Below are positions 1,003 to 33,383 of a stretch of 37,514 nt of DNA, piece after piece (position 1 is the stretch's first letter; the number at the start of each line of letters is the position of its first letter). The stretch lies in IMG/VR virus record IMGVR_UViG_2534681759_000011. One strand, 5' to 3'. Under the pieces are notes generated by a model. That model searched no databases. It saw only the letters and a program-made list of their open reading frames with translations, and was not told where the DNA came from. The translations under genes and the position numbers were made by a program. This stretch comes from a virus (taxonomy: Duplodnaviria; Heunggongvirae; Uroviricota; Caudoviricetes).

Positions 1003-1007
1003 TTTAG

Positions 1008-1355
1008 TTACTTATCACATAAATCAAATGCAGCCTTAGTGACATCCCCCAGACTCTTTTTTAACCCTGGGGCGGCATCATTATCTAGCCAAAATGGATT
1101 ATTGTTATCTAACGGTAACGCACCAAATGTTTTACCTTTTATTCGAGCCAAACCTGTAAGTGCATATAACTTATTATCGTCAAAATTCATTACATAAGGA
1201 TTACCATCAAGACACTGTAATTGAACCTCATCAGTATTAAATGGCCACACCCCATTGAAACTCTCACGTTCAATGGTTTTAAAAGGCATTGCGACGGCGG
1301 AAAAAGAAAACATAGATAAAAAAGTAACTAATAGTTGAACCTTTTTAACTTTCAT
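1008..1355 (-). CDS. Small secreted protein with signal peptide, resembles the YebY/DUF2511 family (115 aa)
   Basis: N-terminal signal peptide MKVKKVQLLVTFLSMFSFSAVA; two Cys (C48, C113) that could form a disulfide; remembered similarity to E. coli YebY; AT-rich relative to the phage backbone. Confidence 0.55.
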   Translation of the reverse strand: MKVKKVQLLVTFLSMFSFSAVAMPFKTIERESFNGVWPFNTDEVQLQCLDGNPYVMNFDDNKLYALTGLARIKGKTFGALPLDNNNPFWLDNDAAPGLKKSLGDVTKAAFDLCDK

Positions 1356-1384
1356 ATCATTACCTCAATTTAGCTCAAGTAAGA

Positions 1385-2035
1385 TTACAAATTAAAAAAC
1401 GCTCTAGAAATGACACCGCCTACCAAACCCCCTACGCAGATAAAGAATATTATTTCTTTTGGATAAAGTCGGATTAATTCTGAAGCACGAAGTCGGACTT
1501 CTGGTAAGGTCGAACTCTCTGTGTGGCTTGATGCCGATTGTTGCTCTAACCACGACAATGCAGACTGTAACTGAGAACGAGTAAGATCGTTTAAACGTCC
1601 TGTACCGAAATTGATATGGCAATACCGCAGAAGTTTTTGTCGAAGTCCACAGTCTTCACTGTTACGTAGTAATAAACTTACAAGAGCCTTACAGGCATCA
1701 TGATCTTTACATCGCTCAAGCATTGCATGCAGAAAACTCTCCGCTGTTTTATATTGATTTACTGTCATATCATCAATACCAGCTACACCAATCTCCGCAT
1801 GTACTTTTTGCCAAATAATAAACGCTTCAGTATTGCTAGCTTCTGCAATAGCAGCAACCAAGCTATTTAGCTCCTTACGCTGAGCCTTAAGCAAAGGGCG
1901 ATCGTCATCATCATTATTCGAAGGGATTGCGATATTGACGGTATGAGAACCATCATATCGCTCTATCTGAATATTCTTTTCGTGAAAATCACGCCCAGCA
2001 ACGCGATTGTTTGAACCGTTTGAGTTGACGGCCAT
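1385..2035 (-). CDS. Tail-anchored membrane protein of unknown function (216 aa)
   Basis: Single C-terminal hydrophobic helix IIFFICVGGLVGGVI; N-terminus carries the motif NNRVAGRDFHE that matches the C-terminal tail of the upstream repressor; AT-rich; located between the repressor and int. Confidence 0.6.
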   Translation of the reverse strand: MAVNSNGSNNRVAGRDFHEKNIQIERYDGSHTVNIAIPSNNDDDDRPLLKAQRKELNSLVAAIAEASNTEAFIIWQKVHAEIGVAGIDDMTVNQYKTAESFLHAMLERCKDHDACKALVSLLLRNSEDCGLRQKLLRYCHINFGTGRLNDLTRSQLQSALSWLEQQSASSHTESSTLPEVRLRASELIRLYPKEIIFFICVGGLVGGVISRAFFNL

Positions 2036-2050
2036 GTCACCTCCCTACTA

Positions 2051-2455
2051 TCACCTGCCCTTAGTTTCGTTATAGTCACGACCAGCGATACGGTTATTAC
2101 CACCAGAAATATTTAACTCACGTCCTGATGGCTGAGTTTCCTTTTCACTGATCGCACCTTTTAAAGCCCCAATCACCGCGTTTTTCACATCTAACGAAGC
2201 TGCTCGAAAGCGAGTAATCAACTCCTGCTCATCATCGTTATAAGTTTCAGGTGAGTGAATTCCCAACACAACATACTGAACATCAAGGCCAAAACGAGAC
2301 AGCGCTGCCAAATACGCAGCATCAGGAAAGCTATCTCCTTTCTCATATCTAAGCTGAGTTAGCTTTTTGACTCCACCAATGTCGCTCATGGCAACTTGAC
2401 TAAGTCCCAATCTTTCCCTTTCCTCACGCAACCGCTGACCAATATCATTTTTCAT
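2051..2455 (-). CDS. HTH (XRE/Cro-C1 type) transcriptional repressor, probable immunity repressor (134 aa)
   Basis: N-terminal helix-turn-helix (QRLREERERLGLSQVAMSDIGGVKKLTQLRYEKG); transcribed divergently from the early operon and co-directional with int; too short to carry a LexA-like S24 peptidase domain. Confidence 0.75.
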   Translation of the reverse strand: MKNDIGQRLREERERLGLSQVAMSDIGGVKKLTQLRYEKGDSFPDAAYLAALSRFGLDVQYVVLGIHSPETYNDDEQELITRFRAASLDVKNAVIGALKGAISEKETQPSGRELNISGGNNRIAGRDYNETKGR

Positions 2456-2530
2456 ACAAAAACCTTGACAGGTATCTTTTTTGATACCAAAATGATTTCA
2501 CGAGCTATTAGATGATCACAATATACCACT
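2456..2530. promoter_or_regulatory. Divergent promoter/operator region between the repressor and the early operon
   Basis: TTGACA at 2465-2470 followed by the palindrome GGTATC-N6-GATACC (2471-2488); positioned like the P2 Pe/Pc switch region. Confidence 0.4.
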
Positions 2531-2737
2531 ATGAAACAAGTTCTTCACGATACCAGATCACGCATTCCGCGTAACACCGCCACAGGTCCAAGACTGGCAC
2601 TTCGGCTGTCCCTCGAGGAGCGAGCCGTCATTGATGAAATGGCAGCTAAAGAACAACGCTCATCCTCTAACATGGCGCGCATGATCTTCCTTCGCGGCCT
2701 AGAACTAACCCAGAAAGAACAAAACAAATCTTCCTGA
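2531..2737 (+). CDS. Small DNA-binding regulator, ribbon-helix-helix-like (68 aa), first gene of the early operon
   Basis: Pattern RLALRLSLEERAVIDEMAAKE typical of RHH (Arc/CopG-type) proteins; occupies the Cox/Apl/Cro position. Confidence 0.45.
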   Translation: MKQVLHDTRSRIPRNTATGPRLALRLSLEERAVIDEMAAKEQRSSSNMARMIFLRGLELTQKEQNKSS

Positions 2738-2753
2738 TCAAGAGGCTAGTGGG

Positions 2754-2957
2754 ATGTCAGGTATAACCATCAATATCAATGTGAATGCCCCCTATGTATC
2801 CCTGCAGAAATATGCAGAGATAACAGGTATCCCTCTTAATACATGCAAAAAGATGTTGGCTGACGGTCGAATTATTATCCGCCCCAAACGCGCCAAAATG
2901 GAAAAGCCTGAAGTAAACCTTGTGGCGATGTTAAAAGACGCTTTGACTAACAGCTAA
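2754..2957 (+). CDS. Small HTH protein, Cox/Apl/excisionase-like (67 aa)
   Basis: HTH segment YVSLQKYAEITGIPLNTCKKMLADGRI resembling AlpA/Xis/Cox-type winged helices. Confidence 0.45.
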   Translation: MSGITININVNAPYVSLQKYAEITGIPLNTCKKMLADGRIIIRPKRAKMEKPEVNLVAMLKDALTNS

Positions 2958-2978
2958 AACAATGAACAGAGCACCATC

Positions 2979-3329
2979 ATGAAAAAAAACGCTAATAATC
3001 CATACTCCAAATTTCGTAATGGCGTAGAACGCCATGTACACCACGTCGCTACCAGTGCATCACGTAGTAACAGTCGCTATAACCTGAACGAGACGCACGC
3101 AACACCGGATGGCCACGCTGTAAAACAAATCGGCGAGCATGCCTGGCTGATTGAGAAAGCTGGAATCGTGGTCCACAAATGCCCACGCAATCCGTTTACC
3201 GGAAACCGCATTTTTGCTCTAAGCAGTGGCGACAATCAGTTCGGGCAGGATTTCACATTATACGAAGCACTTCGCACGGTTGATCGTCTGCTTCGCGGGC
3301 AAAGTTTTATTAAACAGGCTGATTTATAA
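2979..3329 (+). CDS. Hypothetical early protein (116 aa)
   Basis: ORF in the early operon; function not recognisable. Confidence 0.45.
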   Translation: MKKNANNPYSKFRNGVERHVHHVATSASRSNSRYNLNETHATPDGHAVKQIGEHAWLIEKAGIVVHKCPRNPFTGNRIFALSSGDNQFGQDFTLYEALRTVDRLLRGQSFIKQADL

Positions 3330-3339
3330 CAGGTGCTTT

Positions 3340-3627
3340 ATGACCAAAGACCATGCACAAGGTGTATTTATCCGTTTTATTGATTTTCGCGGTGAACTGT
3401 TATTACGTGCATCCGCTATTGACGGAGTGACTCCGGCGGGTAAAAACGGAGCCGACGAAGCCACTTACGTTTATCTGAACGGCACGCGACTGCTTGTGGA
3501 ACTTCCGTACCAGACCGTACGAGAAATCATTAGCGAAGCTGAAAAGGCACGCCAGGTTAATGGCGATGAACCCTATATCGAAATTATTTGTATGGATTCA
3601 GAAGCTGAAATACAGAAAGCAGATTAA
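3340..3627 (+). CDS. Hypothetical early protein (95 aa)
   Basis: ATG at 3340 preceded by AGGTG; the longer annotated ORF from 3226 overlaps the previous gene and is probably not the true start. Confidence 0.45.
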   Translation: MTKDHAQGVFIRFIDFRGELLLRASAIDGVTPAGKNGADEATYVYLNGTRLLVELPYQTVREIISEAEKARQVNGDEPYIEIICMDSEAEIQKAD

Positions 3628-3635
3628 AGGGCGTT

Positions 3636-3881
3636 GTGATGGGCAAAGAATATAAAACTCTCATTAACAAAGCACTTGAGCGTTTTTATTTTCGCTTAAG
3701 TGCATCAGGCGCTCATGCTGAACGTGCGGCCCGTGACTCATTGACCAGAGCAATCCGAAGTCTGTATGACGTAGCTTTTTACGCTGATGATCTGGATGCA
3801 CTTAACGAACTTTCCGAGCTGATCTGTGCCGCAGAATGCGGGGAACATATTGAACCGTATAAGCTGGGGAATATCGCATGA
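3636..3881 (+). CDS. Hypothetical early protein (81 aa)
   Basis: ORF with coupled downstream gene (ATGA overlap at 3878-3881). Confidence 0.45.
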   Translation: MMGKEYKTLINKALERFYFRLSASGAHAERAARDSLTRAIRSLYDVAFYADDLDALNELSELICAAECGEHIEPYKLGNIA

Positions 3882-3991
3882 GTATATTTATCTCATGGCT
3901 TGTTCTGATTATTTCGGTGGCCTGCGCTATTGGGATTATGCGAATTATTCATTCAATAAAAAAGATTGAACGCTTTTTCACTGGCGAATAA
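3878..3991 (+). CDS. Small single-pass membrane peptide (37 aa), possible host-kil or toxin-like peptide
   Basis: Translation MSIFISWLVLIISVACAIGIMRIIHSIKKIERFFTGE; ATG overlaps the stop of the preceding gene; below the ORF-track length threshold. Confidence 0.35.
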   Translation: MSIFISWLVLIISVACAIGIMRIIHSIKKIERFFTGE

Positions 3992-4077
3992 CAGAACAAA
4001 TAAAACCACAGATTAAATAAGAAAATGTAAAAACAATCCGCATTCGCGGAGGTATTCGCACACGCCAAGGAGGCGTA

Positions 4078-4281
4078 ATGGCAATTAAGCATTTTCCTGT
4101 CGTTCGTTTTACCTCCAGAGGGCGGGAATACGAAGTCGACGAACGCCTGATTACCACAATCGACAAACACCGTTCAGAAAAGGATGCACATCACATCTAT
4201 CTCACTGACGGCACTTACTTCTGCGCCACGAATGTGGTGCGGGTGAACCTTATCCGACAGGTACAGGAGTCACGCAGATGA
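4078..4281 (+). CDS. Hypothetical early protein (67 aa)
   Basis: Strong RBS AGGAGG upstream of the ATG. Confidence 0.5.
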   Translation: MAIKHFPVVRFTSRGREYEVDERLITTIDKHRSEKDAHHIYLTDGTYFCATNVVRVNLIRQVQESRR

Positions 4282-4523
4282 CCATTCTGGACTATATTGC
4301 CGCCAATCCGGGGTGTAGCGGTGGAGAAATCGCCGCAGCACTGAATACCCCAACCACAGCCATTAATGCGGAGTTACGCCGACTCTGGCGCAGCGGTTCA
4401 GTCATAAGAAAAGAGCGCAAAACAGGCGGTCGCTTTTCTTACCAGATAAACCCGATGCCGTTCGGGTGTGGCAATCCACTTACCAACATGTTTAACCAGC
4501 TACTGAAGGAAGCCAGAGCATGA
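4278..4523 (+). CDS. Hypothetical early protein (81 aa)
   Basis: Start overlaps the previous stop; not otherwise recognisable. Confidence 0.4.
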   Translation: MTILDYIAANPGCSGGEIAAALNTPTTAINAELRRLWRSGSVIRKERKTGGRFSYQINPMPFGCGNPLTNMFNQLLKEARA

Positions 4524-4819
4524 GCGCCATCAACCACAAGGAATTACGCGAACTGGCGACTGACCTGCAACGAATGGCAACGCCTCAAAAATTACTGGCG
4601 TTTCGCGCAATGCTCTCGCCGTCTGCTGTGCTGGCGCTGCTGGATGAGCTGGAGCACGCCAGAACCACACCTCTCGCCATTCGCCTGACGCTCCGTCATG
4701 AAATCGAGGATTTCTGCGCGACGTTGGAGGCGCCAGGCGAACCGGAAACGCCGGAAGCAATACAGCAAGAGCTGCTGCAACGCATTGACAAGGTTTTTGA
4801 TTTTTTTCTGAACCACTAA
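4520..4819 (+). CDS. Hypothetical early protein (99 aa)
   Basis: Start overlaps the previous stop. Confidence 0.45.
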   Translation: MSAINHKELRELATDLQRMATPQKLLAFRAMLSPSAVLALLDELEHARTTPLAIRLTLRHEIEDFCATLEAPGEPETPEAIQQELLQRIDKVFDFFLNH

Positions 4820-5141
4820 GAAACCAGAACATGCACACACAAAAAAACCGCTTGCCATGCCGCAATCAGTCAGGTTACATTTCCGCTGCACCTCATAAAA
4901 CGGGTGCCGGGTTTCGCAGCCCGCTGACAAACGTAGCGCACAACCGCGCCAGCGGTTTTTTTGTGCGTACTGTATCGCCACGTCTTTTTCGCATCAGAAT
5001 TATGGTGGGGCGTACGGGGCCGACTTCGGTCGGGCCGGGTTCTGCGTTTGCCGGTACTGCGAACCTCGTACGTCTCGCCACCCACAGTTTCGCAGCTCTG
5101 GATGGTGAGTTTTCAAAACTTACACACGTAGAGGCCACACC

Positions 5142-5372
5142 ATGGCAAACCGCAAACAGCACCGCGCTATCGCGGAGCGTCGTCACATCCAGACTGAAAT
5201 CAACCGCAGACTTTCCCGCGCATCACGCGTCGCGCAAATCATGCACATCAATATGCTGCATGAGCGTAGCTGCGAACTTTCAAACCTCTATTCATCCGCT
5301 GTTTTCAGTTATCTGGCGGATGATCTGCGCGAGCTTCAGCAGCTCATCCAGCAGCAAAACAAACTCCATTAA
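5142..5372 (+). CDS. Hypothetical small basic protein (76 aa)
   Basis: Arg-rich N-terminus; follows a GC-rich structured intergenic region; weak RBS. Confidence 0.3.
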   Translation: MANRKQHRAIAERRHIQTEINRRLSRASRVAQIMHINMLHERSCELSNLYSSAVFSYLADDLRELQQLIQQQNKLH

Positions 5373-5444
5373 TTCCTGTTCCGGGCCTTTCCTGCACCTT
5401 GCGGCGGGAGGCCTTCGCACATCTGTAACAAGAGGATTGCCGCA

Positions 5445-7724
<2,280 letters not shown>

Positions 7725-7776
7725 ATTGACAACAGTCTGCCGCGACACCCTGAATGGCATAACGAAGTAAATCACT

Positions 7777-10584
7777 ATGACGGCAGAGTACATCAGGGAC
7801 TGGCAGCAACCGCGCCACGCAGTGGGGCGTGAAGGAACGGGGATCCCCGCTCCTGAATCCGCGCTTTCCTCCTGGCTGGATGCCTACCGGGCAGAGAACG
7901 AGCGCTGCCAGGAAATGGCTGATGCGGCGTTCTCCGCCACGCCGCTGGGCAACCTGATTAATAAAAGCCTGGACGCACAGGAAAAACAGGACAAAACCAT
8001 CACACTGGCAGGAGACGCCAGAAAGCAGGTACGCGGCGCGGTGGATGAAGCCATGGCCTCGCTGCGCCTGCTGCCATCCTATCTGCGCGATCCGCTTATT
8101 CGCCACCTCTCCTTCCTGCGCAAAAAACAGGAATCTGACCGCCAGAAAGGTAAAAAGAACCAGCAGGCTGAACGCTACGCGCGCGGGACCCTGCGCAAAA
8201 TATTCGAACGTCTGGATCGCACTGACGGGCGCTGGCTGACACCGGGTTATCGCTCCCTTGCCGGGCGCGAACGCCTGGACGATTTGCTTTACCTGCCGCA
8301 GCTCAACAAGCACCAGATACAGACGCTGGCCACCATGACGGCGGCGATGTTCAGCAGCACCTTCGAAACACTCTGCGATGGCTTTGGTGCCAGAGATGGC
8401 GAGCTGACCATGGATGTAATGTTGAAGGCTTACCGGATGCTGGCCCGTATCGCATTACGCCTGCACATCATGCCGCCACATTACGAAGCCCTGAACAAGA
8501 GCGATCCGGATACGGAACTGTTACCGGGCGCAATCCTTCGCCTGACCTGTGCGGAATGGTGGAAACGCAAATTGTGGCTGTTACGTTGCGAGTGGAGAGA
8601 AGAACAACTCCGCGCCGCCTGTCTGGTTTCCAGAAAAACATCACCCTATCTGAGCCAGGACGCGTTAAGCGAGTTTCGCGCACAGCGCGAGAAAACACGC
8701 GATTTCCTGAAAAGTTTCATGCTGGAAAACGAAGACGGGTTCACGATTGATCTCGAGACAGTGTATTACGCGGGAGTAAGTAACCCGGTTCACCGTAAGG
8801 CAGAAATGATGGCCACCATGAAGGGGCTGGAACTTCTGGCCGAAGCCCGTGGCGACAAAGCGGTGTTTCTGACTGTCACCTGCCCGTCAAAATACCACGC
8901 CACAACAGAGAACGGTCATCCGAATCCCAAATGGAACGGGGCCACCATGCGCGACTCCAGCGATTACCTGGTTAACACGTTTTTTGCGGCGGTCCGCAAG
9001 AAACTGAACCGCGACGGCCTGCGCTGGTATGGCATCCGCACGGTGGAGCCTCACCATGACGGCACCGTGCACTGGCATATGATGGTCTTTGCACATCCGG
9101 ACGAGATTGAAACCATCGTGTCCCACGTCTGCGATATTGCCATTCAGGAAGACCGCCACGAGCTGGGCGATGACATAACTCCGCGTTTTAAGGCGGAGTA
9201 CGTAGACGGCTCAAAAGGCACACCAACCAGCTACATCGCCACCTACATCGGAAAGAACCTGGACAGCCGCGCCGTGGATGGCATCGACCAGAAAACGGGC
9301 AAGCCACGCGTTGACCACGAAACCGGAAAATCAATGGCCGAGAGCGTGGAACGCGCCATCGGCTGGGCGCGCCTTCACCGGGTCCGCCAGTTCCAGTTCT
9401 TTGGCATCCCCTCCCGTCAGGTGTGGCGTGAACTCCGCCGCCTTGCCAGCCAGATGGCACGCAACCCGGAAGGCCCGCAACGGCTGAAGGATGACGCAAT
9501 GGATGCGGTACTCGCTGCCGCTGATGCAGGATGTTTTGCCACCTACATAGAGAAACAGGGCGGCGTACTTGTTCCACGCAAAGACTACCTGATTCGCACC
9601 GCCTACGACCTCGCCGATGAGCTGAACGATTACGGCGAACAGAGCGTACAGATTTACGGGATCTGGTCACCACTCATCGGGGAATCCTCCCGTGTGTGCA
9701 CGCATCCGGATAACTGGAAGCTGGTAAGACGCAAACCGGAAGCGGAAGACAGCGCCCGCGAAAATGGTTTTGACCTTCAGGGCGGCCCTGCCGCCCCTTG
9801 GACTCGTGGCAATAACTGTCCCCGTGTACAGGAAACAGGCAACAGCGGGACAGAACAGTCGAAAGAACGGCCAGCACCGTGGCCGCAGCTTCCTGACGGC
9901 GTTGAAGTGAACGAATGGATGCGCTCACTGAAACGGCACGAACGCCGGGCGCTGATGCGTTCGCTTCGTGACAAACAGGCAAAAAACAGCAGTGATGAAA
10001 TGCAGAGCTGGACACAGAGCCGCAAACAGCAGCGGCCTTTGCCTGATAACCACGAATTACTCGCTAAAGAATGGCGGGAGTCTGCCGAATCTCTCGGCCT
10101 GCATATCGGTGAACAGCAGATGCAGCACCTGCTACGGGGCGGCAGCCTGTACGTTGACGGCAGCATCATTGCACCGCAGGGATATGAAATTGTACGCAAA
10201 CCGGATACCCGCCCGGACAGCCGAATCACGCAGCTCTGGCAGCACCTGAGCCGTAATCACGGCGTAAGCAGCACGGAGATCCGCCATAACCCGGTCGCCA
10301 GCTATCTGGCACAGCTGGGGGCATCAGACCCCGAAGCCGCCGCACGCCTGGCATCCGCACTTCAGCAGGATCAGAACACCATGAAAACACCCGTTACCGT
10401 GCTTTCTGACATGCTGCGCGCCATCCGCGACGCAGAGCACGCACAGAGAATCAGTGAAACCACTGAACGCGCCAGCCGCAAAGCAGACCTGCTGCAGGGT
10501 GGCCTGACCAGTGGAAACAAAAAACAGACAGAAACGGGATCCACAAATCCCGTAAATGAGCAAAAAACGCGCCGCGATATATGA
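7777..10584 (+). CDS. A: Rolling-circle replication initiation endonuclease, P2 gpA family (935 aa)
   Basis: HUH motif in EPHHDGTVHWHMMVF and catalytic tyrosine pair in YIATYIGKNLD; weak RBS, start immediately downstream of the IS. Confidence 0.85.
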   Translation: MTAEYIRDWQQPRHAVGREGTGIPAPESALSSWLDAYRAENERCQEMADAAFSATPLGNLINKSLDAQEKQDKTITLAGDARKQVRGAVDEAMASLRLLPSYLRDPLIRHLSFLRKKQESDRQKGKKNQQAERYARGTLRKIFERLDRTDGRWLTPGYRSLAGRERLDDLLYLPQLNKHQIQTLATMTAAMFSSTFETLCDGFGARDGELTMDVMLKAYRMLARIALRLHIMPPHYEALNKSDPDTELLPGAILRLTCAEWWKRKLWLLRCEWREEQLRAACLVSRKTSPYLSQDALSEFRAQREKTRDFLKSFMLENEDGFTIDLETVYYAGVSNPVHRKAEMMATMKGLELLAEARGDKAVFLTVTCPSKYHATTENGHPNPKWNGATMRDSSDYLVNTFFAAVRKKLNRDGLRWYGIRTVEPHHDGTVHWHMMVFAHPDEIETIVSHVCDIAIQEDRHELGDDITPRFKAEYVDGSKGTPTSYIATYIGKNLDSRAVDGIDQKTGKPRVDHETGKSMAESVERAIGWARLHRVRQFQFFGIPSRQVWRELRRLASQMARNPEGPQRLKDDAMDAVLAAADAGCFATYIEKQGGVLVPRKDYLIRTAYDLADELNDYGEQSVQIYGIWSPLIGESSRVCTHPDNWKLVRRKPEAEDSARENGFDLQGGPAAPWTRGNNCPRVQETGNSGTEQSKERPAPWPQLPDGVEVNEWMRSLKRHERRALMRSLRDKQAKNSSDEMQSWTQSRKQQRPLPDNHELLAKEWRESAESLGLHIGEQQMQHLLRGGSLYVDGSIIAPQGYEIVRKPDTRPDSRITQLWQHLSRNHGVSSTEIRHNPVASYLAQLGASDPEAAARLASALQQDQNTMKTPVTVLSDMLRAIRDAEHAQRISETTERASRKADLLQGGLTSGNKKQTETGSTNPVNEQKTRRDI

Positions 10585-20893: not shown

Positions 20894-21297
20894 AGCTCTG
20901 GCCCACGCTGGGCGTCGCTTTCCTTCTGATTGCCGCATGGGGAACATCCATGCGTCTGTCGTGGTCGCTGGGCCGGGAGAACGCCAGAAACGAAGCGCAG
21001 GCCAGCACCCTGAAAAGTACCGTCGACACCCTGAATATCATCAGCGCCGGGGTACAGGATATGCAGCAGGTGCTGGCACAACTCCGCGTGGAAAATCAGC
21101 AACGCAATCAGGACGGAGAAGCCAGACGTGAACAGCTACGCAACGATATTGCAAAAGATGAATGCGCCCACGCTTTGCCTGATGCTCGTTTTACTGACAG
21201 GTTGCGCAGGCACGCTGAACGCGCCACGGCCAGCGCCGTCAGTCCGGCTTATACCGCAGACGCTGACCATACCGGTAACGCCTCCCCCCGTCCCTGA
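20890..21297 (+). CDS. lysB: LysB / Rz-like inner-membrane spanin component
   Basis: ATG overlaps the endolysin stop (ATGA); N-terminal transmembrane helix LWPTLGVAFLLIAAWG. Confidence 0.6.
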   Translation: MKLWPTLGVAFLLIAAWGTSMRLSWSLGRENARNEAQASTLKSTVDTLNIISAGVQDMQQVLAQLRVENQQRNQDGEARREQLRNDIAKDECAHALPDARFTDRLRRHAERATASAVSPAYTADADHTGNASPRP

Positions 21298-21448
21298 CAC
21301 TCCCACATGGGGAAATCTCGGTATATGGGGCGACCGCCTTCTGGATGCACTGGAAACCTGTAACGCGGATAAACGGGCCATTGAATTACTGGAACAGCGC
21401 AGGCTGCAACGACTGAACAACGAGGACAACAACCATGCTGAAAACTGA
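21158..21448 (+). CDS. lysC: LysC / Rz1-like outer-membrane lipoprotein spanin component
   Basis: Lipobox LLTGC after a short signal peptide; overlaps lysB in another frame; Pro-rich. Confidence 0.5.
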   Translation: MNAPTLCLMLVLLTGCAGTLNAPRPAPSVRLIPQTLTIPVTPPPVPDTPTWGNLGIWGDRLLDALETCNADKRAIELLEQRRLQRLNNEDNNHAEN

Positions 21449-21902
21449 TTCCCTGCGTGAAGCCATGACCCGTTCATGCCGATGGTGTCAGGCCAACCCG
21501 GAAAAATTCACCATTTTCGTGGAGAGCGGCAACATTGAAACGACCGGAGAAACGCCCTCGTTTGTTTAACGCTATCAGATGGTGATGTTTGTCATGGATT
21601 ACGCCGGGGAGCTGGACGACCTCACGCTGCCGCTACTGGCGTGGTTATCCGAAAATCAGCCACAGTTGTTGCTCAATCCGGAGCGTAATCAGGACATCAA
21701 ATTTTCCGCCGTTATCAATGACGATGACAGCGCCGATCTCCTGTTTACGCTCCCCCTGCGGGAACGCGTTCGCATTACGCGCAACAGTCAGGGGACACCG
21801 CAGGCAGAACACCTGCCGGAGCCAAAACCCCGTCTGCCCTCTTCCGAAGGCGACTGGTCGCATGTATTCCAGGATGTGACGTGGGGTGAAAGCAATGGAT
21901 AA
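21435..21902 (+). pseudogene. R: Tail completion protein R, interrupted by an in-frame TAA at 21567-21569
   Basis: A 44-codon ORF with good RBS (GAGGA) ends at TAA; the same frame resumes 9 nt later for 107 codons with no RBS of its own; combined length about 155 aa. Confidence 0.5.
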
Positions 21903-22530
21903 GGCATTCACCCGTGTGGATGAAACCTTTGAGGCCATCCGTGACAGCCTGAATCAGCAGGTCATCAATAACATCGCCAGAAAGCTGGCACAGGATTTAC
22001 GCCGCGCCCAGCAGGCACGTATCCGGTCACAGAAAGCGCCGGACGGGACCGCGTGGACACCTCGCAGACGCCGCGTAACCCGGATACAGGAGCGCATTCG
22101 CTTTATCTGGAATAACGAAGCACGCACGCTGAAAAACTGGCATCACGACACGGGGAAATACGGGCGAACCATTACCGGGTGGGATGAGGATAAAAACAAT
22201 ATCCGCACGTTTTACCGGGATGACATCGACCGTTTTCTGGAAATACGCACCCGGCGCATCAACCAGGACAGCACAAAGCGCGTCCCCATGTTCGTAAAAC
22301 TGCGCACCGCCCGCTACCTGAAAGCCCGTGCAGATGCTTCCGGTGTGACGGTGGGTTACAGCGGCGTGGCCGCACGTATTGCACGCGTTCATCAGTTCGG
22401 TGAGCGCGATCAGGTTGCGCCGGGCATTTTCACCGATTACCCGGTACGTGAGCTGCTGGGTATCAGTCAGGCAGATGAACGCCTGATTTATAACACGGTA
22501 CTGGGCCGGATTGCGGAGGCTGTACGGTGA
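21895..22530 (+). CDS. S: Tail completion / virion morphogenesis protein, gpS-like
   Basis: Position between R and V; start overlaps the R stop. Confidence 0.65.
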   Translation: MDKAFTRVDETFEAIRDSLNQQVINNIARKLAQDLRRAQQARIRSQKAPDGTAWTPRRRRVTRIQERIRFIWNNEARTLKNWHHDTGKYGRTITGWDEDKNNIRTFYRDDIDRFLEIRTRRINQDSTKRVPMFVKLRTARYLKARADASGVTVGYSGVAARIARVHQFGERDQVAPGIFTDYPVRELLGISQADERLIYNTVLGRIAEAVR

Positions 22531-24879: not shown

Positions 24880-26439
24880 ATGAGTACCACAACACGTAAA
24901 TTTAAAACCGTTATCACCAATACGGGTGCCAAAAAATTAGCTCAGGCAGCCGCGCCAGATGGTAAGCCTGTCCGCCTGACTCATATGGCCGTGGGTGACG
25001 GCGGCGGCACTTTACCCTCGCCAGACAGTAAGCAGACCCGTCTGGTGCATGAGGTGTGGCGACACACTGTTAATCGCGTCTTCCTGGACGCAACACATCA
25101 GAACCGCATTATTGCGGAGCTGGTTGTTCCTCCAGAAACGGGCGGATTCTGGATCCGGGAAATTGGTGTGTTTGATGAGCACGGCGATTTAATCGCAGTA
25201 GGCAATACTGCCGAAAGTTACAAGCCAACCGTTGCCGAAGGGTCAGGACGTGCACAAACATTTCGCACCATTCTGACCGTATCCAGCACTGCCACTATGG
25301 CGCTTACCGTGGATAACACCATGGTAATGGCCACAGTGGATTACGTGGATGACAAACTGAAAGAGCATGAACAGTCACGACGTCACCCGGACGCCTCGCT
25401 GACCGCAAAAGGCTTTGTTCAACTTAGCAGCGCCACTAACAGCACATCTGAAACGCTGGCTGCGACACCTAAGGCTGTTAAGGCAGCATATGACCTGGCT
25501 AATGGCAAATACACCGCACAGGACGCAACCACTGCGCGGAAAGGGATAGTTCAGCTCAGTAGCGCCACTAACAGCACATCTGAAACGCTGGCTGCGACAC
25601 CTAAGGCTGTTAAGGCAGCATATGACCTGGCTAATGGCAAATACACCGCACAGGACGCAACCACTGCGCGGAAAGGGATAGTTCAGCTCAGTAGCGCCAC
25701 CAACAGCACGTCTGAAACGCTTGCGGCAACGCCAAAGTCTGTTAAGGCGGCATATGACCTGGCTAATGGCAAATACACCGCACAGGACGCTACCACTGCG
25801 CGAAAAGGGATAGTTCAGCTCAGTAGCGCCACTAACAGCACATCTGAAACGCTGGCTGCAACGCCGAAAGCAGTAAAGGCCGCATATGACCTTGCTAACG
25901 CAAAATATACCGCTCAGGACGCAACGACGGCACGAAAAGGGATAGTTCAGCTCAGTAGCGCCACTAACAGCACATCTGAAACGCTGGCTGCGACGCCAAA
26001 AGCTGTTAAGGCGGTAATGGATGAAACGAACAAGAAAGCGCCCTTAAACAGTCCTGCACTGACCGGAACGCCAACAACGCCAACTGCGCCAAAAGGGACT
26101 AATAATACTCAGATCGCAAGCACGGCTTATGTGATGGCCGCGATTGCCGCACTTGTAGACTCGTCGCCTGACGCACTGAATACGTTGAACGAGTTAGCGG
26201 CGGCGCTGGGAAACGACCCGAATTTTGCGACCACCATGACTAAAGCGCTTGCGGGTAAGCAACCGAAAGATGCCACCCTGACGGCGCTGGCCGGGCTTGC
26301 TACTGCGGCAGACAAGTTTCCGTATTTTACGGGGAATGATGTCGCCAGCCTGGCAACCCTGCAAAAGTCGGGCGGGATATTCTTGCGAAATCGACCGTTG
26401 CCGCTGTTATCGAATACCTCGGTTTACAGGAAACGGTAA
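24880..26439 (+). CDS. H: Tail-fibre protein H, constant N-terminal part; frame breaks near 26366
   Basis: N-terminus MSTTTRKFKTVITNTGAKKLAQAA… matches remembered P2 gpH; contains 132-bp tandem repeats; the conserved continuation KVGRDILAKSTVAAVIEYLGLQETVN is in the -1 frame from 26364. Confidence 0.75.
   Translation: MSTTTRKFKTVITNTGAKKLAQAAAPDGKPVRLTHMAVGDGGGTLPSPDSKQTRLVHEVWRHTVNRVFLDATHQNRIIAELVVPPETGGFWIREIGVFDEHGDLIAVGNTAESYKPTVAEGSGRAQTFRTILTVSSTATMALTVDNTMVMATVDYVDDKLKEHEQSRRHPDASLTAKGFVQLSSATNSTSETLAATPKAVKAAYDLANGKYTAQDATTARKGIVQLSSATNSTSETLAATPKAVKAAYDLANGKYTAQDATTARKGIVQLSSATNSTSETLAATPKSVKAAYDLANGKYTAQDATTARKGIVQLSSATNSTSETLAATPKAVKAAYDLANAKYTAQDATTARKGIVQLSSATNSTSETLAATPKAVKAVMDETNKKAPLNSPALTGTPTTPTAPKGTNNTQIASTAYVMAAIAALVDSSPDALNTLNELAAALGNDPNFATTMTKALAGKQPKDATLTALAGLATAADKFPYFTGNDVASLATLQKSGGIFLRNRPLPLLSNTSVYRKR
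25411..26010 (+). repeat. In-frame tandem repeat, 132-bp unit, about 4.5 copies, inside the tail-fibre shaft
   Basis: Repeated 44-aa unit ARKGIVQLSSATNSTSETLAATPKAVKAAYDLANGKYTAQDATT; unit starts at about 25411, 25543, 25675, 25807 and 25939. Confidence 0.85.
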
Positions 26440-27384
26440 ATCAGGCTTCTGGTGCATTACAGAAAAAACAGAACGGCGCAGATATTCCAGGAAAAGATAC
26501 CTTCACCAAAAATATTGGTGCCTGCCGCGCATATAGCGCATGGCTGAATATTGGTGGCGATAGTCAGACCTGGACAACCGCACAATTCATTTCGTGGCTG
26601 GAGAGTCAGGGGGCATTTAACCATCCTTACTGGATGTGCAAAGGCTCATGGGCTTATGCAAACAATAAGGTCATTACAGATACAGGTTGCGGAAATATTT
26701 GTCTTGCAGGTGCTGTGGTGGAAGTTATTGGCACTCGCGGCGCAATGACCATACGCGTTACTACGCCGAGTACATCCAGCGGTGGCGGAATTACTAACGC
26801 TCAATTCACCTATATTAATCATGGTGATGCTTATGCTCCTGGCTGGCGACGAGACTACAACACGAAAAACCAGCAGCCTGCATTTGCTTTAGGGCAAACA
26901 GGAAGCAGGGTTGCAAATGATAAAGCTGTTGGCTGGAACTGGAATAGCGGCGTTTATGATGCAGATATCAGTGGCGCATCGACATTAATCCTCCACTTTA
27001 ATATGAATGCGGGGAGTTGCCCTGCTGTACAGTTCCGCGTGAATTATAAAAACGGCGGTATCTTTTATCGTTCAGCGCGTGATGGTTATGGTCTTTGAAG
27101 CTAACTGGTCAGAGTTTTACACCACAACCCGCAAACCCTCTGCGGGGGATGTTGGTGCATATACGCAGGCAGAATGTAACTCAAGGTTTATTACAGGTAT
27201 TCGCCTGGGCGGTCTGTCATCTGTTCAGACATGGAATGGTCCCGGCTGGTCTGACAGGTCAGGTTATGTCGTTACGGGTTCAGTTAACGGAAACCGTGAT
27301 GAATTAATTGATACAACTCAGGCAAGGCCAATTCAGTATTGCATTAATGGAAGGTGGTATAACGCGGGGAGTATTCAATTATGA
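26370..27384 (+). pseudogene. Tail-fibre variable C-terminal segment, expressed orientation; reading frame broken
   Basis: Open in the -1 frame from about 26364 to 27098, then continues in another frame from 27079 to 27384 ending [13 protein letters not shown]; glycine-rich distal-fibre character. Confidence 0.5.
26407..26432. promoter_or_regulatory. gix/hix/cix-type recombination site (left inverted repeat of the invertible segment)
   Basis: TTATCGAATACCTCGGTTTACAGGAA; close to the remembered Mu gix consensus and an inverted copy of the site at 29336-29361; lies inside the tail-fibre reading frame. Confidence 0.75.
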
Positions 27385-27914
27385 TGCACTTAAAAACATT
27401 ACTGCTGGCAACCCTAAAACAAAAGAGCAATACCAGCTAACGAAACAATTTAACATCAAATGGCTTTATTCAGATGATGGAAAAAACTGGTATGAGGAAC
27501 AAAAGAACTTTCAGCCTGATACGTTGAAAATGGTCTATGACCGTAACGGCGTTATTATTTGTATTGAAAAGGATGTTTCAGCAATTAATCCAGTAAGGCG
27601 CAAGCGTCGTTGAATTACCTGATATTACAGCAAATCGCCGGGCTGATATTTCGGGTAAATGGATGTTCAAAGATGGCGTAGTGATAAAGCGAACTTATAC
27701 CGGGGAAGAGCAGAGGCAGCAGGCAGAGAATGAAAAGCAAAGCCTGTTGCAACTTGTCAGGGATAAAACCCAGTTATGGGACTCACAGCTACGGCTGGGC
27801 ATCATTTCCGACGAGAGTAAACAAAAATTAACAGAGTGGATACTCTTTGCGCAGAAAGTCGAATCTACAGACACTTCCAGCCTGCCAGTAACATTTCCCG
27901 AACAACCTGAATGA
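27381..27914 (+). pseudogene. Tail-fibre assembly chaperone, expressed orientation; split by frameshifts
   Basis: Pieces [25 protein letters not shown]… and …[22 protein letters not shown]… parallel the intact minus-strand paralogue but lie in different frames; the A-run at 27392-27396 and the region near 27592-27600 separate the frames. Confidence 0.5.
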
Positions 27915-27942
27915 GACAAGGCCCGATAGCGGGCCTTAATTT

Positions 27943-28470
27943 TTATTCAGGCTTTTGTGGCCATTCAGGATTTGCCGTATCCACACGGCTGACCAGAACA
28001 CTGTAGCGTTCCCATGCTTCCAGTCGTGTGCGCTCCTCGTCTGTTGCCATATTCAGCCTGGCAGCGCGTTCCAGTGGCTGGATGACTGATTCAGTTTCGG
28101 AAAGCAATGCGGCCTTTTGTGATTCGGCCTGTTGTTGCTGTTCGTCTGCTGTATAAATCCGCTTAACCACAGTTCCGTCCTTAAACATCCACTTCCCTGA
28201 ATCATCGGCACGACGATTGACTGTTATATCTGGAATCTCAACGACACTAAAGCCTTCGGGATTAAGCGTTGAGGCATCTTTGGTTATGGCAACAATAATA
28301 TTATTTTCGTCGTAAACAATCTTTATGGTGTCTTCCTGAAAGCTATTTACTTCCTCATACCAGTTTTTACCGTCTTCTGTATATAACCAGATAACATCAA
28401 AATTCTTTGTTAGCTGATATTGCTCTTTTGTTTTTGGATTTCCTGACTTAATATTTTTTAAATGCTGCAT
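27943..28470 (-). CDS. Tail-fibre assembly chaperone, alternative copy inside the invertible segment (175 aa, intact)
   Basis: [24 protein letters not shown]… typical of tail-fibre assembly proteins; silent in the present orientation. Confidence 0.8.
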
Positions 28471-28473
28471 AAT

Positions 28474-29335
28474 TTACACCTGTGCTACGTTATACCATGT
28501 GCCATTGATGTATTTTTGTATTGGTCTGAAGATGGCTTCATCATCGCCATCTACTTCACCAATGATTCTTAATCCGGTAATTGCGTGTCCGGCTTTTTCA
28601 TAACGACCACCACGCGCCATCAATTGAACAACTCGCGTACCCAGGCGAACATCTTTTACATAGCGTGAATCAAAATTCCCCCAGTTGCTGGGCTGTATCT
28701 GACCGTTAACAGAAAATATTACCGAGTTATCTGTATTTCGCTGGCTATAGAAATGCCATCCTGCCTCATCGCCTAACTCTGCAACTACTGGACGGGTTGA
28801 AGCACCCCATAAATTAAACGTTACATTCTTTGTGGAGGTGTTGGAGCTGGATAGCGAGATTTTTTTACATCACCTGCCTGAATGTTTTTAAAAGCAATAG
28901 CAACTCCATTCTGAAAGCGGAATACTCGCTGACTATTAGCGTAAACATCAAGAATACCGTCTCCATTCTGTTTAAATCCGGTATCATTATCACCAAGAAC
29001 AATAGAGCTACCACCTAACGCATTCGTCGTACCAACTCCAAGGCTGCCATTAATGACGGCATTAACAAGAATATTTAGTGCATCCCATTTCAGCGTCATC
29101 AGGTCTTTTGTTGTGGTGCCCTGGCGGCTTCTCCATTTGAAATATTCATTGCCGTTGTCGCCTGTTTCTAAACCAACATGAATGAATCAGTATCGCTGTC
29201 GGCATCATTTTTAAATCCAATCTTCGCCCAGTCAGTATTTCGAATCCAGGCAAGGATTGAGTCGTTTTCAAAAGTAAGCCCACCGGACAAGGTATCGCCA
29301 TTCTTTTGCACGGCGTTCCTGGCCCTGTTTACCGT
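28474..29335 (-). pseudogene. Alternative tail-fibre C-terminal segment (P2 H-like), promoterless and frameshifted
   Basis: Minus strand encodes LGLQETVNRA…GLTFENDSILAWIRNTDWAKIGFKNDAD…, …LETGDNGNEYFKWRSRQ…TLKWDALNILVNA… and a C-terminus INGTWYNVAQV, matching remembered P2 gpH, but in three frames; breaks near 29164-29180 and at the T7 run 28860-28866. Confidence 0.6.
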
Positions 29336-29361
29336 TTCCTGTAAACCGAGGTTTTAGATAA
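29336..29361. promoter_or_regulatory. gix/hix/cix-type recombination site (right inverted repeat)
   Basis: TTCCTGTAAACCGAGGTTTTAGATAA, near-identical to the remembered Mu gix sequence; immediately upstream of the invertase gene. Confidence 0.8.
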
Positions 29362-29415: not shown

Positions 29416-30003
29416 GTGCTGATTGGCTATGTAAGGGTATCAACAAATGACCAGAATACAGACCTGCAACGAAACGCTCTTGTTTGTGCAGGATGTGAAC
29501 AGATATTTGAAGATAAATTAAGCGGGACAAAGACAGACCGACCGGGATTAAAACGCGCTTTAAAGCGCCTTCAAAAAGGTGACACGCTGGTTGTCTGGAA
29601 ACTGGATCGCCTCGGGCGAAGCATGAAACATCTGATTTCTCTCGTCGGGGAACTACGGGAGCGAGGGATTAATTTTCGCAGTCTGACCGACAGCATAGAT
29701 ACATCTTCTCCAATGGGGCGTTTTTTCTTCCACGTGATGGGGGCCCTGGCTGAAATGGAACGTGAATTAATTGTTGAACGTACACTGGCCGGACTGGCGG
29801 CAGCGCGCGCACGGGGGCGCACAGGCGGACGTCGACCGAAGCTGACAAAAGAACAGCATGAGCAAATAGCAAGGCTGATTAAAAACGGTCACGACAGAAA
29901 ACAACTGGCAATAATTTACGGCATTGGTATATCGACGATTTATCGTTACCACCCCGCAGGAGAACCAAGCGGAACAATTGAGAAGAGTCAGGAAACAAAA
30001 TAA
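29416..30003 (+). CDS. Serine DNA invertase, Gin/Hin/Cin/Pin family
   Basis: GTG start behind GGGAGA; N-terminus (M)LIGYVRVSTNDQNTDLQRNAL… with catalytic Ser; nearly matches remembered Mu Gin over the catalytic domain; C-terminal HTH. Confidence 0.9.
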   Translation: MLIGYVRVSTNDQNTDLQRNALVCAGCEQIFEDKLSGTKTDRPGLKRALKRLQKGDTLVVWKLDRLGRSMKHLISLVGELRERGINFRSLTDSIDTSSPMGRFFFHVMGALAEMERELIVERTLAGLAAARARGRTGGRRPKLTKEQHEQIARLIKNGHDRKQLAIIYGIGISTIYRYHPAGEPSGTIEKSQETK

Positions 30004-30539: not shown

Positions 30540-33383
30540 TCAATCTTTATCGTAAAAACTGCCACGTCCGGCACGGGCGCGCCGTTCCATTTCTGCCCTG
30601 ACCATTTCACCGACCAGTTTCGCCAGTTCGCGGGGATTCTGTGTAACAACGTTATGCAGATGAACATGAATTTCACCGCCAAATCCGGAGGCAACAGGCT
30701 CCCGGTTACGGGAATTTGCAGGAACTGATGCCACTGGCGATCGTATAGCCTCCGCCACCGGGCGGGAGCTGGCCGCAACAACAGGGACCAGCGCCGGAGG
30801 CAGCGGAGCCGGAACCACGGGTGTGATAGTAATTGCGGGGGCAGGCTTACTGACCTGCGCAATCTTCCGCTCCTGCCACTCCCCACGAACAGCAAGTGCG
30901 CGGGGCAGGTTCTTAAAGACAATATCACCGGGGCCAATGCGTTTTTTCGTCTCATCAACCAGCTTACCTGTGTTATCAGCAATTTTGCTGAGTCTGCGTA
31001 GCGTACCGGTATTGCTGTCTGTGAGTGGTTTGTTGTCTTTGGGTTTATCACCTCCGGTGCCATTGCCATTTTCCACAGGCTTCGGCGGATTGATTTTCGC
31101 CAGGTCCCCCTGAAGCAAGGCAACCTTGTCCTGAAGAATGGCCGCACGCTGTGCGTCTTCGATTTTCTTGCGCGCCCTTTCAGCTTCATCCGGAAGGACG
31201 CCAAGTTTTTCAAGTATCCACGCCAGCGTATCCAGTAGCATTTTTGCAGGTGTCAGAACAAGCTGTAACGCACCGCCAAGAACGTTACCGAATATCTCGC
31301 CAGCACTGGTACATTTATCCAGCGTTTCCTTACTGGACTCCATCGGTGACAGCAGCGATTTAAACCAGTTAAACACCTGGCTGATCCCGCTTCCGATTGC
31401 GTCAAAAACAGGGCCAAACCGTTCAAAGGTTTCGCGCAACGGAGCCAGCCGTTCCATAATCCCACTGAACACCCCTGCATAAAACGCCTTGATGGGTTCC
31501 CAGTATTTCCAGATGAGAACCGCCGCAGCCACAAACGCAGCAGCAATCAATCCGACCGGACTGAACAGCGCCCCGATAGCGCCTCCCAGTAACGAAATGG
31601 AACCCGTCACCATTCCCCATAATGCAGGCAGAACCCTGACAACATTCAATGATCCGGTCAGGAGGGAAAAACCAAGACGCAGTTTTGCCAGTGGGCCAGC
31701 AAGCACACCAATAGCCAGCGACAACGAGCCTATGGTTGCAGTCATTGCCAGCAGAGCACCGCCTGCAACCAGTAGCTGGCGCGTCAGTGCCGGATGGGCC
31801 TGCGCCAGCGCCGTCACCTTCGATACCACCCGCGTGAGCCACTGCGTGACAGAACGCTGCGGACCGTCAATCAGATCTGCAATGCGGATGCGCACCCCTT
31901 CCCATGCACTGCCGAGTGATTTCAGATCGCCGTCAAGGTTGTTGGCCATAACCTTTGCTGTGCGTTCAGCCTCACCGCGCGCGCCTTCAAGTTCTTTTCT
32001 CAGTTTGGGTAAGGAGCCGTCACCTGCCGCATCAACGAGGGCCATAAATGATGTGAAAGCCTCTTCTCCGGCAATATCCTTAAAGAACGATACCCGGTCA
32101 ACTTCCCCGTATTTGCGGGTGGCTTTATAAAGGTCAGCCAGCAGATCTTCCATCGGGCGCATTTTGCCGTTCGCGTCAGAGACGGACACGCCCAGCTCTT
32201 TCAGCGCCTCTGCTGCTGCCTTTGGCGGTGATGCCAGACGAGCCAGGCTGGCACGCATTGCCGTCCCGGCATCACTCCCTCTGATACCCATATTCGCCAG
32301 CACGCCAGCCATCGCTGCAGCCTGCTCCAGCGATATTCCCAGCTTACCCGCCACCGGACCGGCATATTTCATGGTTTCGCCCAGTGCGCGAAGGTCAGTG
32401 TTGGTACGGGTAAACGCTGCAGTGAGTGTGTCACCGACCCGGTCCATCTGGTCAGCAGAAAGGCCGAACTGCGTCAGGATATTTGAGCCAATATCCGCCG
32501 TCTCGCCGAGATCCATACCGCCAGCCGTTGCCATGCTCAACACGCCGGGAAGCGCAGCCTGAATGGCCTGCGGTGTGAAGCCAGCCATTGCAAGAAATGC
32601 CTGCCCACTGGCGGCATCGCCTGCGGTGAACTGCGTTTCAGAGCCAAGTTTTAACGCCTGCTCACGCAGCGCCTTAAACTGCGGGCTGTTCTGGTCGATT
32701 CGCGTCAGCGCCTGAACGCGGGACATCTCTTTCCCGAACCCGATTGCGGGCTGCAAAAAACGCCCGGCAGCATAGCCGCCCGCCGCTGCCGCACCAATTG
32801 CCAGTACACCACCTGTTTTCAGTTTTCCCGCTGTTTCCTGCGCACGCGAATACCGCTCACGCGCCCGCGTTACACGCGTAAGCGACTGCCGTTCGCGTTC
32901 AAGCTGGTTGTTGTACTGTTCGGTGCGCCTGATGGCCTGTTGAATGGTGTTATCGCTGCCTGTCAGGGAAATGCCGTGGCGTTTCAGCTCTCCGCCAAGC
33001 TCCCGCATTTTCTGAATTTCCCGTATGCGCGATTCATTCAGGCGTTCAAGCCGGGTGCTTAACTGCTGCATCAGCTTTTGTTGCTTTTCGCTGAGCACTG
33101 TACCCGTGCGTTGTAACTGATTAAGGGCGTTAAGCTGGCGTCGTGCTTTCACGATACCCGCATCCGCTTTACTGACAGCGTCGCGGGCGCGCTCAAATGA
33201 ACGCGCCTGACGCTCGAGATTTTTGATCGCCCCCTGCGTTCGCTGGATGGAGTCACCAAACTGCCCCATCAGGCGGCGGGCGTTTTCGGCAGGCCGGGTC
33301 AGCCTGTCAACGGCGCTGAAAGCGACCCGGATATCAAGAGTCTTCATTGTCTGCATTCCCGCTGCGAAGTGCCGCCCGCTCAC
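30540..33383 (-). CDS. T: Tail tape measure protein, P2 gpT family (947 aa)
   Basis: Long, Ala/Gly-rich, helical with hydrophobic central segments; uninterrupted 2.8-kb reading frame. Confidence 0.85.
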   Translation of the reverse strand: MSGRHFAAGMQTMKTLDIRVAFSAVDRLTRPAENARRLMGQFGDSIQRTQGAIKNLERQARSFERARDAVSKADAGIVKARRQLNALNQLQRTGTVLSEKQQKLMQQLSTRLERLNESRIREIQKMRELGGELKRHGISLTGSDNTIQQAIRRTEQYNNQLERERQSLTRVTRARERYSRAQETAGKLKTGGVLAIGAAAAGGYAAGRFLQPAIGFGKEMSRVQALTRIDQNSPQFKALREQALKLGSETQFTAGDAASGQAFLAMAGFTPQAIQAALPGVLSMATAGGMDLGETADIGSNILTQFGLSADQMDRVGDTLTAAFTRTNTDLRALGETMKYAGPVAGKLGISLEQAAAMAGVLANMGIRGSDAGTAMRASLARLASPPKAAAEALKELGVSVSDANGKMRPMEDLLADLYKATRKYGEVDRVSFFKDIAGEEAFTSFMALVDAAGDGSLPKLRKELEGARGEAERTAKVMANNLDGDLKSLGSAWEGVRIRIADLIDGPQRSVTQWLTRVVSKVTALAQAHPALTRQLLVAGGALLAMTATIGSLSLAIGVLAGPLAKLRLGFSLLTGSLNVVRVLPALWGMVTGSISLLGGAIGALFSPVGLIAAAFVAAAVLIWKYWEPIKAFYAGVFSGIMERLAPLRETFERFGPVFDAIGSGISQVFNWFKSLLSPMESSKETLDKCTSAGEIFGNVLGGALQLVLTPAKMLLDTLAWILEKLGVLPDEAERARKKIEDAQRAAILQDKVALLQGDLAKINPPKPVENGNGTGGDKPKDNKPLTDSNTGTLRRLSKIADNTGKLVDETKKRIGPGDIVFKNLPRALAVRGEWQERKIAQVSKPAPAITITPVVPAPLPPALVPVVAASSRPVAEAIRSPVASVPANSRNREPVASGFGGEIHVHLHNVVTQNPRELAKLVGEMVRAEMERRARAGRGSFYDKD

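Follow-up and report, generated by a model that had tools for sequence, protein, structure and literature searches.

In bacteriophage P2, the end of the tail is formed by gpR. According to a cryo-electron microscopy preprint (10.64898/2026.09.14.750843), six copies of this protein make up the last ring of the neck and act as the tail terminator, with residues L123-V125 binding the head-to-tail adaptor gpL and the E142-I145 strand binding the apical subunits of the sheath. Mutants of P2 without gpR make tails with a longer tube, as summarised in PMC11784142. The protein (NP_046768.1; UniProt P36933) has 155 amino acids (aa) and is encoded by an essential tail gene, located after lysC and before S. 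Nonsense alleles of this gene are classical: the amber mutants of P2 in R (Lengyel et al. 1974; Linderoth et al. 1994) were reportedly laboratory-selected conditional lethals grown on suppressor hosts. The closest described relative of the locus considered here is gp33 of phage P88 (YP_009113076.1; Xuanwuvirus, Peduoviridae), encoded by an uninterrupted gene of 468 nucleotides (nt) within the order lysB/lysC-R-S-V-W-J. We analysed gene R in a stretch of 37,514 nt of viral DNA (IMG/VR record IMGVR_UViG_2534681759_000011; hereafter the window, meaning the whole stretch), which carries a P88-like prophage of the P2 family. The window has the same gene in the same synteny, placed as in P2 between lysC and S. 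However, codon 45 is an ochre stop, a natural mutation that has become fixed in a prophage lineage, in contrast to the laboratory ambers of P2. We consider it highly probable that this is a real, clonal C-to-A mutation, likely to be null, in a decaying and vertically inherited prophage.

Reading frame and family of gene R

Gene R occupies positions 21435 to 21902 of the plus strand. A Shine-Dalgarno (SD) sequence, GAGGA (21422-21426, plus strand), lies 8 nt 5' of the start codon, and its duplex with the anti-SD is estimated at -5.9 kcal/mol. From this start an open reading frame (ORF) of 44 codons runs to TAA at 21567-21569 (ORF 21435-21569, plus strand), with gpR residues 1-44 as the expected product. 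Nine nucleotides further on (CGC TAT CAG) the same frame resumes at an in-frame ATG, Met49, and continues for 107 codons to a TAA at 21900-21902 (ORF 21579-21902, plus strand). No ribosome-binding site was found before ATG 21579, where the duplex energy is +1.2 kcal/mol, compared with an average of -2.5 kcal/mol for the 647 ATGs on the plus strand of the window. The sum of 44 codons, the stop, 3 codons and 107 codons is 155, the same as in P88 gp33, in the E. coli prophage protein WP_000920586.1 and in P2 gpR. The original prediction, made from the letters of the window, had described a 44-codon frame with a good ribosome-binding site, a 107-codon continuation without one and a joined length of about 155 aa; the coordinates proved exact, and so did the length.

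That prediction had also named the gene as tail gene R of the P2 family, and the joined protein bears this out, matching the PF06891 (P2_Phage_GpR) profile over its entire length (1-133 of 133; E 3.7e-39; 134.3 bits against a cut-off of 25). Each of the fragments passes the threshold by itself, the N-terminal one covering profile positions 1-44 and the C-terminal one positions 51-133. In BLASTP the joined protein is 40% identical to P2 gpR across 117 aa (E 6e-27; both of 155 aa), and it shares 98% protein identity with P88 gp33, with a single stop in the alignment. The gene order, in which the lysis cassette (lysB/lysC) is followed by R, S and then baseplate genes, also fits the family. The motif that the original prediction associated with P2 gpR turned out to be close rather than literal: LPLLAWLSENQP is present in the window R, whereas the P2 counterpart is the related VPVLAWLRENQP, the two sharing (V/L)P(V/L)LAWL(R/S)ENQP. 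The protein has the fold of tail terminators (a lambda gpU-like alpha/beta domain). However, the frame that should run uninterrupted through the whole domain is broken by TAA at codon 45, and the window R is a pseudogene of the PF06891 family rather than a functional member of it. The lesion is already known in that public annotation, by the Prokaryotic Genome Annotation Pipeline (PGAP), flags the identical sequence as a pseudogene.

Origin and distribution of the TAA allele

Alignment with intact loci places the change at a single base, C to A at 21569. Codon 45 is TAC (Tyr) in P88 and in E. coli GDSC2BY4G, and it is TAC likewise in the uninterrupted gene encoding WP_000920586.1, which is only 3 bases away from the window R. 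Nine further loci that share the neighbouring baseplate-V allele of the window encode an uninterrupted R of 155 aa and carry C at the position of 21569, and in loci L021, L028 and L030 this base is the only difference from the window R. The split of R is not a chance pattern, because it is one base away from an intact and widespread gene. The claim that the lesion is a substitution and not a homopolymer indel is thus confirmed, the remainder of R being identical. An alignment of both parts with gpR homologues had been named in advance as a check, and in it R is normally one gene with Tyr45 invariant in 26 of 26 full-length homologues (36-95% identity). Judged by these comparisons, TAA is the derived state, as the orthologues carry a sense codon. 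The possibility that R is naturally two genes here, which had been put forward as the outcome that would overturn the prediction, finds no support in complete genomes: a stretch corresponding to a 61-nt probe centred on the stop is present in 1030 of 5426 complete E. coli genomes, and only 3 of the 1030 match the TAA-bearing probe exactly. In protein records, the exact 44-aa fragment comes from 43 contigs compared with at least 1000 for the intact protein.

The three exact matches are the finished chromosomes of E. coli O114:H49 90-9280, ETEC-2264 and E2980. All three are 100% identical to the window across 21300-22100, and in each of them PGAP labels R as "phage tail protein, internal stop" (COG33_RS05545 in 90-9280, CJU63_RS11140 in ETEC-2264 and JLZ94_RS10295 in E2980). 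Each genome has a single copy of the R-S region. The window itself corresponds to contig AQFA01000039.1 of GCA_000355255.2 (100% identity across 20.3 kb). In all, the identical 468-nt R with TAA was found at 12 loci in at least 10 public assemblies, including long- and short-read assemblies, older drafts and one third-party annotation (TPA) reassembly. All TAA carriers that could be placed belong to one clone of enterotoxigenic Escherichia coli (ETEC), namely lineage L3, O114, CS7, from Bangladesh. The reference strain of that lineage is E2980 (phylogroup B1, sequence type ST5305, O114, CS7, heat-labile toxin LT, Bangladesh 2010; PMC8085198).

The carriers also agree in the chromosomal site of the prophage, between yecA and hok-tRNA-pgsA-uvrC, and 2,684 bp of host flank match ETEC-2264 at 100% identity. 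Immediately beyond the prophage ends, on the yecA side and on the side of the tRNA-Leu/Cys/Gly cluster, are the two copies (100% identical) of a 124-bp direct repeat (L019:4768-4891 and L007:5744-5867), which is probably the duplicated attachment site. The TAA allele is confined to this one site in a single clone, and nothing points to its having spread horizontally as a phage. Since the same TAA recurs in many independent assemblies of clonal relatives, the stop is not a polishing artefact. Since R is identical within one clone and at the same chromosomal site, the stop must have arisen once and been inherited vertically thereafter. At the level of sequence comparison, the stop in R can be taken as established to be a genuine inherited allele of one clone.

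Probable consequences of the stop and competing interpretations

In the AlphaFold2 model, residue 45 sits inside a strand (residues 42-56) of a single alpha/beta domain. The 44-residue product retains helices 1-2, strand beta1, the hairpin loop (37-41) and the first three residues of beta2, whereas the regions matching the gpL- and sheath-binding strands of P2 gpR are all downstream of the stop. A single transversion turned codon 45 from TAC (Tyr) into TAA (ochre) by changing its third base, on an otherwise unchanged, widespread R allele. For what follows from it, we propose this sequence of events. Ribosomes would terminate after gpR residue 44, leaving a peptide with two helices and slightly more than one beta-strand of a protein that consists of a single domain. 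The SD-less ATG49 might allow, through termination and reinitiation, very little of the 107-residue C-terminal piece at best, and this piece, deprived of part of the core sheet, would not be expected to give a functional gpR hexamer. In P2 the gpR ring caps the tail tube, holds the upper end of the sheath in place and attaches to gpL; without it, tubes would be over-long and tails could not join heads. Induction would then yield filled heads together with aberrant tails, but nothing infectious. Most simply, the mutation would be neutral decay of a prophage no longer selected for its virion genes.

By analogy with P2, R is most likely null and the prophage most likely unable to make tails that can be joined to heads. 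The longer tube of P2 R mutants would be expected here as well, and the failure of the tails to join heads is suggested by the docking role of gpR in the P2 structure. Thus, where the original prediction spoke of a prophage unable to complete tails, the nonsense mutation in R is real, and the inability is a likely consequence drawn from P2 genetics and structure.

Several points weigh against this interpretation. P2 gpR (genus Peduovirus) has Lys at the position aligned with the Tyr45 that is invariant in the P88 group (Xuanwuvirus), and the residue is not universally required; this is relevant only if the window stop is read through. Our search for suppressor tRNAs covered derivatives of tyrT/V, tRNA-Lys and tRNA-Gln in complete genomes; a suppressor derived from tyrU or from a Glu, Leu or Ser tRNA, or a distant P2-like helper prophage supplying gpR in trans, might still make up for the lesion. 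Finally, there is a second natural nonsense allele of R, three codons away, in which Gln48 is changed from CAG to TAG directly before ATG49 (TAGATG). It was found in 19 contigs, including the 4.9-Mb chromosome CP024239.1 (L032:1501-1968; further loci L031, L033 and L034), in two backgrounds that are 2.3% apart (97.7% identical), and it leaves some room for tolerated breaks at this place. Both alleles give the same 107-aa downstream ORF, so that database counts of the 107-aa fragment mix the two.

It is tempting to see a pattern in this recurrence: two or three stops of independent origin, all in the four codons that precede an internal Met, suggest that a split may be tolerated here. The clustering of stops before Met49 is nevertheless weak evidence, because the protein cluster that revealed the Gln48 TAG allele gathers fragments of 26-56 aa only, a range in which about nine codons are one step from a stop. 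A non-random placement of the nonsense codons, whether through fragments that reassemble or because the C-terminal fragment, spanning the part that binds adaptor and sheath in P2 gpR, is selected as a decoy with a dominant-negative effect on superinfecting P2-like phages, seems to us quite unlikely.

The interpretation that survives best beside simple loss of function is functional gene fission. Termination at TAA would be followed by reinitiation at ATG49, only 9 nt away, and fragments 1-44 and 49-155 would associate non-covalently into a working, or partly working, terminator, leaving the prophage viable. The position of the break just past the beta-hairpin loop (residues 37-41 of the model) is compatible with this scenario, as is the independent Gln48 TAG allele, which on both of its haplotypes leads to the same ATG49. 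However, there is no SD before ATG49 (+1.2 kcal/mol), strand beta2 would lack four residues, the invariant Tyr45 and Tyr47 among them, and the 9-nt gap is unchanged from intact genes, hence no adaptation is shown. The TAA allele is found at one site in one clone, with no horizontal phage spread seen, and TAA prophages also bear IS100 insertions. Together with the bias of the nonsense clustering noted above, this leads us to regard fission as improbable.

Suppression or readthrough of the stop, by a host ochre-suppressor tRNA or by natural misreading of UAA, might in principle supply enough gpR for some infectious particles. Only six subunits are needed per virion, and the Lys of P2 at the aligned position suggests that several inserted residues might work. 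Against this, UAA is the most efficient terminator in E. coli, with readthrough of around 1e-4 to 1e-3. No tRNA genes were found in the window, and none of the 5426 complete E. coli genomes, the three carriers among them, has an exact match to tRNA-Tyr (tyrT/V), tRNA-Lys or tRNA-Gln with an ochre anticodon, the best hit always being one mismatch off. The surroundings of the stop offer nothing either: the predicted fold of 21540-21660 is no better than shuffled sequences (z +0.62), which offers no stimulatory RNA structure, no Rfam family matches at the stop site, and a promoter and terminator scan found nothing. Programmed recoding, like a natural split, would need a stop conserved among homologues, whereas this one is limited to one clone. 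We therefore consider readthrough very improbable.

An even smaller likelihood attaches to selected inactivation or domestication, in which the truncated product would be kept to poison the tails of superinfecting P2-like phages, or the crippling of the virion would benefit the host. The recurrent nonsense alleles just before Met49 could be read in this way, and so could the fact that the allele has persisted in different isolates of an ETEC clone that is successful (2010 is the date of E2980). However, clonal descent explains that persistence, the fragment lacks an SD that would support its expression, and R has not changed in sequence since the stop arose. In addition, the lysis genes are intact, and a tail defect would therefore not spare the induced cell. 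The weakest alternative, a sequencing or assembly artefact with a true codon of TAC, could appeal to the probable errors elsewhere in the window assembly (three 1-base indels in IS100 and seven in the invertible tail-fibre segment), but it is effectively refuted already and of negligible probability, given a substitution rather than an indel, an R that is otherwise identical base for base, and the same TAA at 12 loci from independent read sets and platforms, three finished chromosomes among them.

Probable decay of the prophage and its wider context

The stop in R is accompanied by another lesion. A complete IS100 element (IS21 family, istA/istB; 5777-7731, plus strand), identified by BLAST against the IS100 of relatives and showing a 5-bp overlap at both junctions, lies 45 nt upstream of replication gene A and interrupts a small early ORF at its 3' end. 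It cuts the homologue of P88 gp15 at residue 112 of 121 and separates gene A (7777-10581), itself intact, from the upstream early genes. This IS100 is a second, independent lesion of the prophage. In 90-9280, ETEC-2264 and E2980, IS100 is found instead between genes U and T, where the equivalent site of the window (30572-30576) is uninterrupted. An extra IS30 splits the late-control/tail gene D in 90-9280 (L006:39731-41302, NZ_CP024240.1) and is absent from the window, ETEC-2264 and E2980. Two blocks of the window, at 14-19.7 kb and at 22-25 kb, show 2-4% divergence from the three finished genomes, whereas the region between them (19.7-22 kb), which includes R, is identical. In the 22-25 kb block it is the window that has the commoner allele, with a V protein listed in 182 index blocks. 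These divergent blocks are a recombination mosaic in the same-site prophage of the same clone. Since the TAA is shared while the IS positions and recombination blocks are not, the R stop is probably older, and we infer that it is probably the oldest lesion of the prophage. Given the R stop and the IS100 upstream of gene A, the prophage is best seen as decaying and vertically inherited.

The 1-base indels of the window are of a different nature. Relative to clonal relatives there are seven in the tail-fibre segment (27092, 27397, 27594, 28869, 29169, 29175 and 29328), which frameshift the C-terminus of the fibre and the fibre-assembly gene and which the relatives lack; three more are in the IS100 copy (6772, 7031 and 7060) and another is at 1318. 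Only some of them fall in homopolymers. Errors of the consensus, perhaps due to mixed-orientation reads, are a more probable explanation for them than biology. Their absence from relatives, set against the TAA at 12 loci, agrees with the earlier view that the stop is less easily explained as a polishing artefact than the tail-fibre lesions. The segment concerned (26407-29361) is invertible and comprises a tail-fibre C-terminus and assembly-gene cassette beside a Cin/Gin-type DNA invertase gene (29416-30000); its orientation in the window and 90-9280 differs from that in ETEC-2264 and E2980. Tail-fibre gene H has internal tandem repeats of about 132 bp, 88-92% identical, at 25404-26014 (offset BLAST self-matches). 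As for position 1318, it lies in a DUF2511 gene by the integrase (about 1008-1354, minus strand; L006:4970-5316), which is annotated as "frameshifted" in all three finished genomes and has an extra A in an A-run in the window.

The genes adjacent to R are unharmed. The Rz1-like spanin gene lysC (21182-21448, plus strand; coordinates transferred from the PGAP annotation of the identical sequence) overlaps the start of R with its 3' end and is not altered by the mutation. Gene S (virion morphogenesis / tail completion; 21895-22530, plus strand; PF05069, E 1.9e-27) is intact, without stops and 99.5% identical to P88 gp34, and its ATG overlaps the R stop (ATGGATAA). S is preceded by an SD of its own (-6.1 kcal/mol) and may therefore still be translated when it is no longer coupled to R. 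Rho-dependent polarity might affect both S and gene V, which overlaps it; this overlap distinguishes the window from P2, where a terminator and Orf30 separate S from the V operon. Compared with P88, the head, lysis, baseplate, sheath, tube, tape-measure and D genes of the window are full-length and free of stops, R and the genes of the invertible segment being the exceptions. Elsewhere in the window, isrK (4888-4962, 69.6 bits) and a C4 antisense RNA (4998-5085, 80.4 bits) score above the Rfam gathering threshold on the plus strand and adjoin a "derepression protein" gene, in what looks like a P1/P7-type C4 immunity module inside a P2-family prophage.

Beyond bookkeeping, the finding in R is of little importance; it represents ordinary prophage decay. 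Its uses are practical. The window provides a control case, in which a real substitution lesion stands beside indel lesions that are probably assembly noise, and the R TAA is a clean clonal marker, common to isolates of the clone from different assemblies. It is almost certain that the ETEC L3/O114/CS7 clone carries a virion-defective P88-like prophage, whose R lesion is useful both for calls of prophage "intactness" and for judging phage-mediated gene flow in this ETEC lineage.
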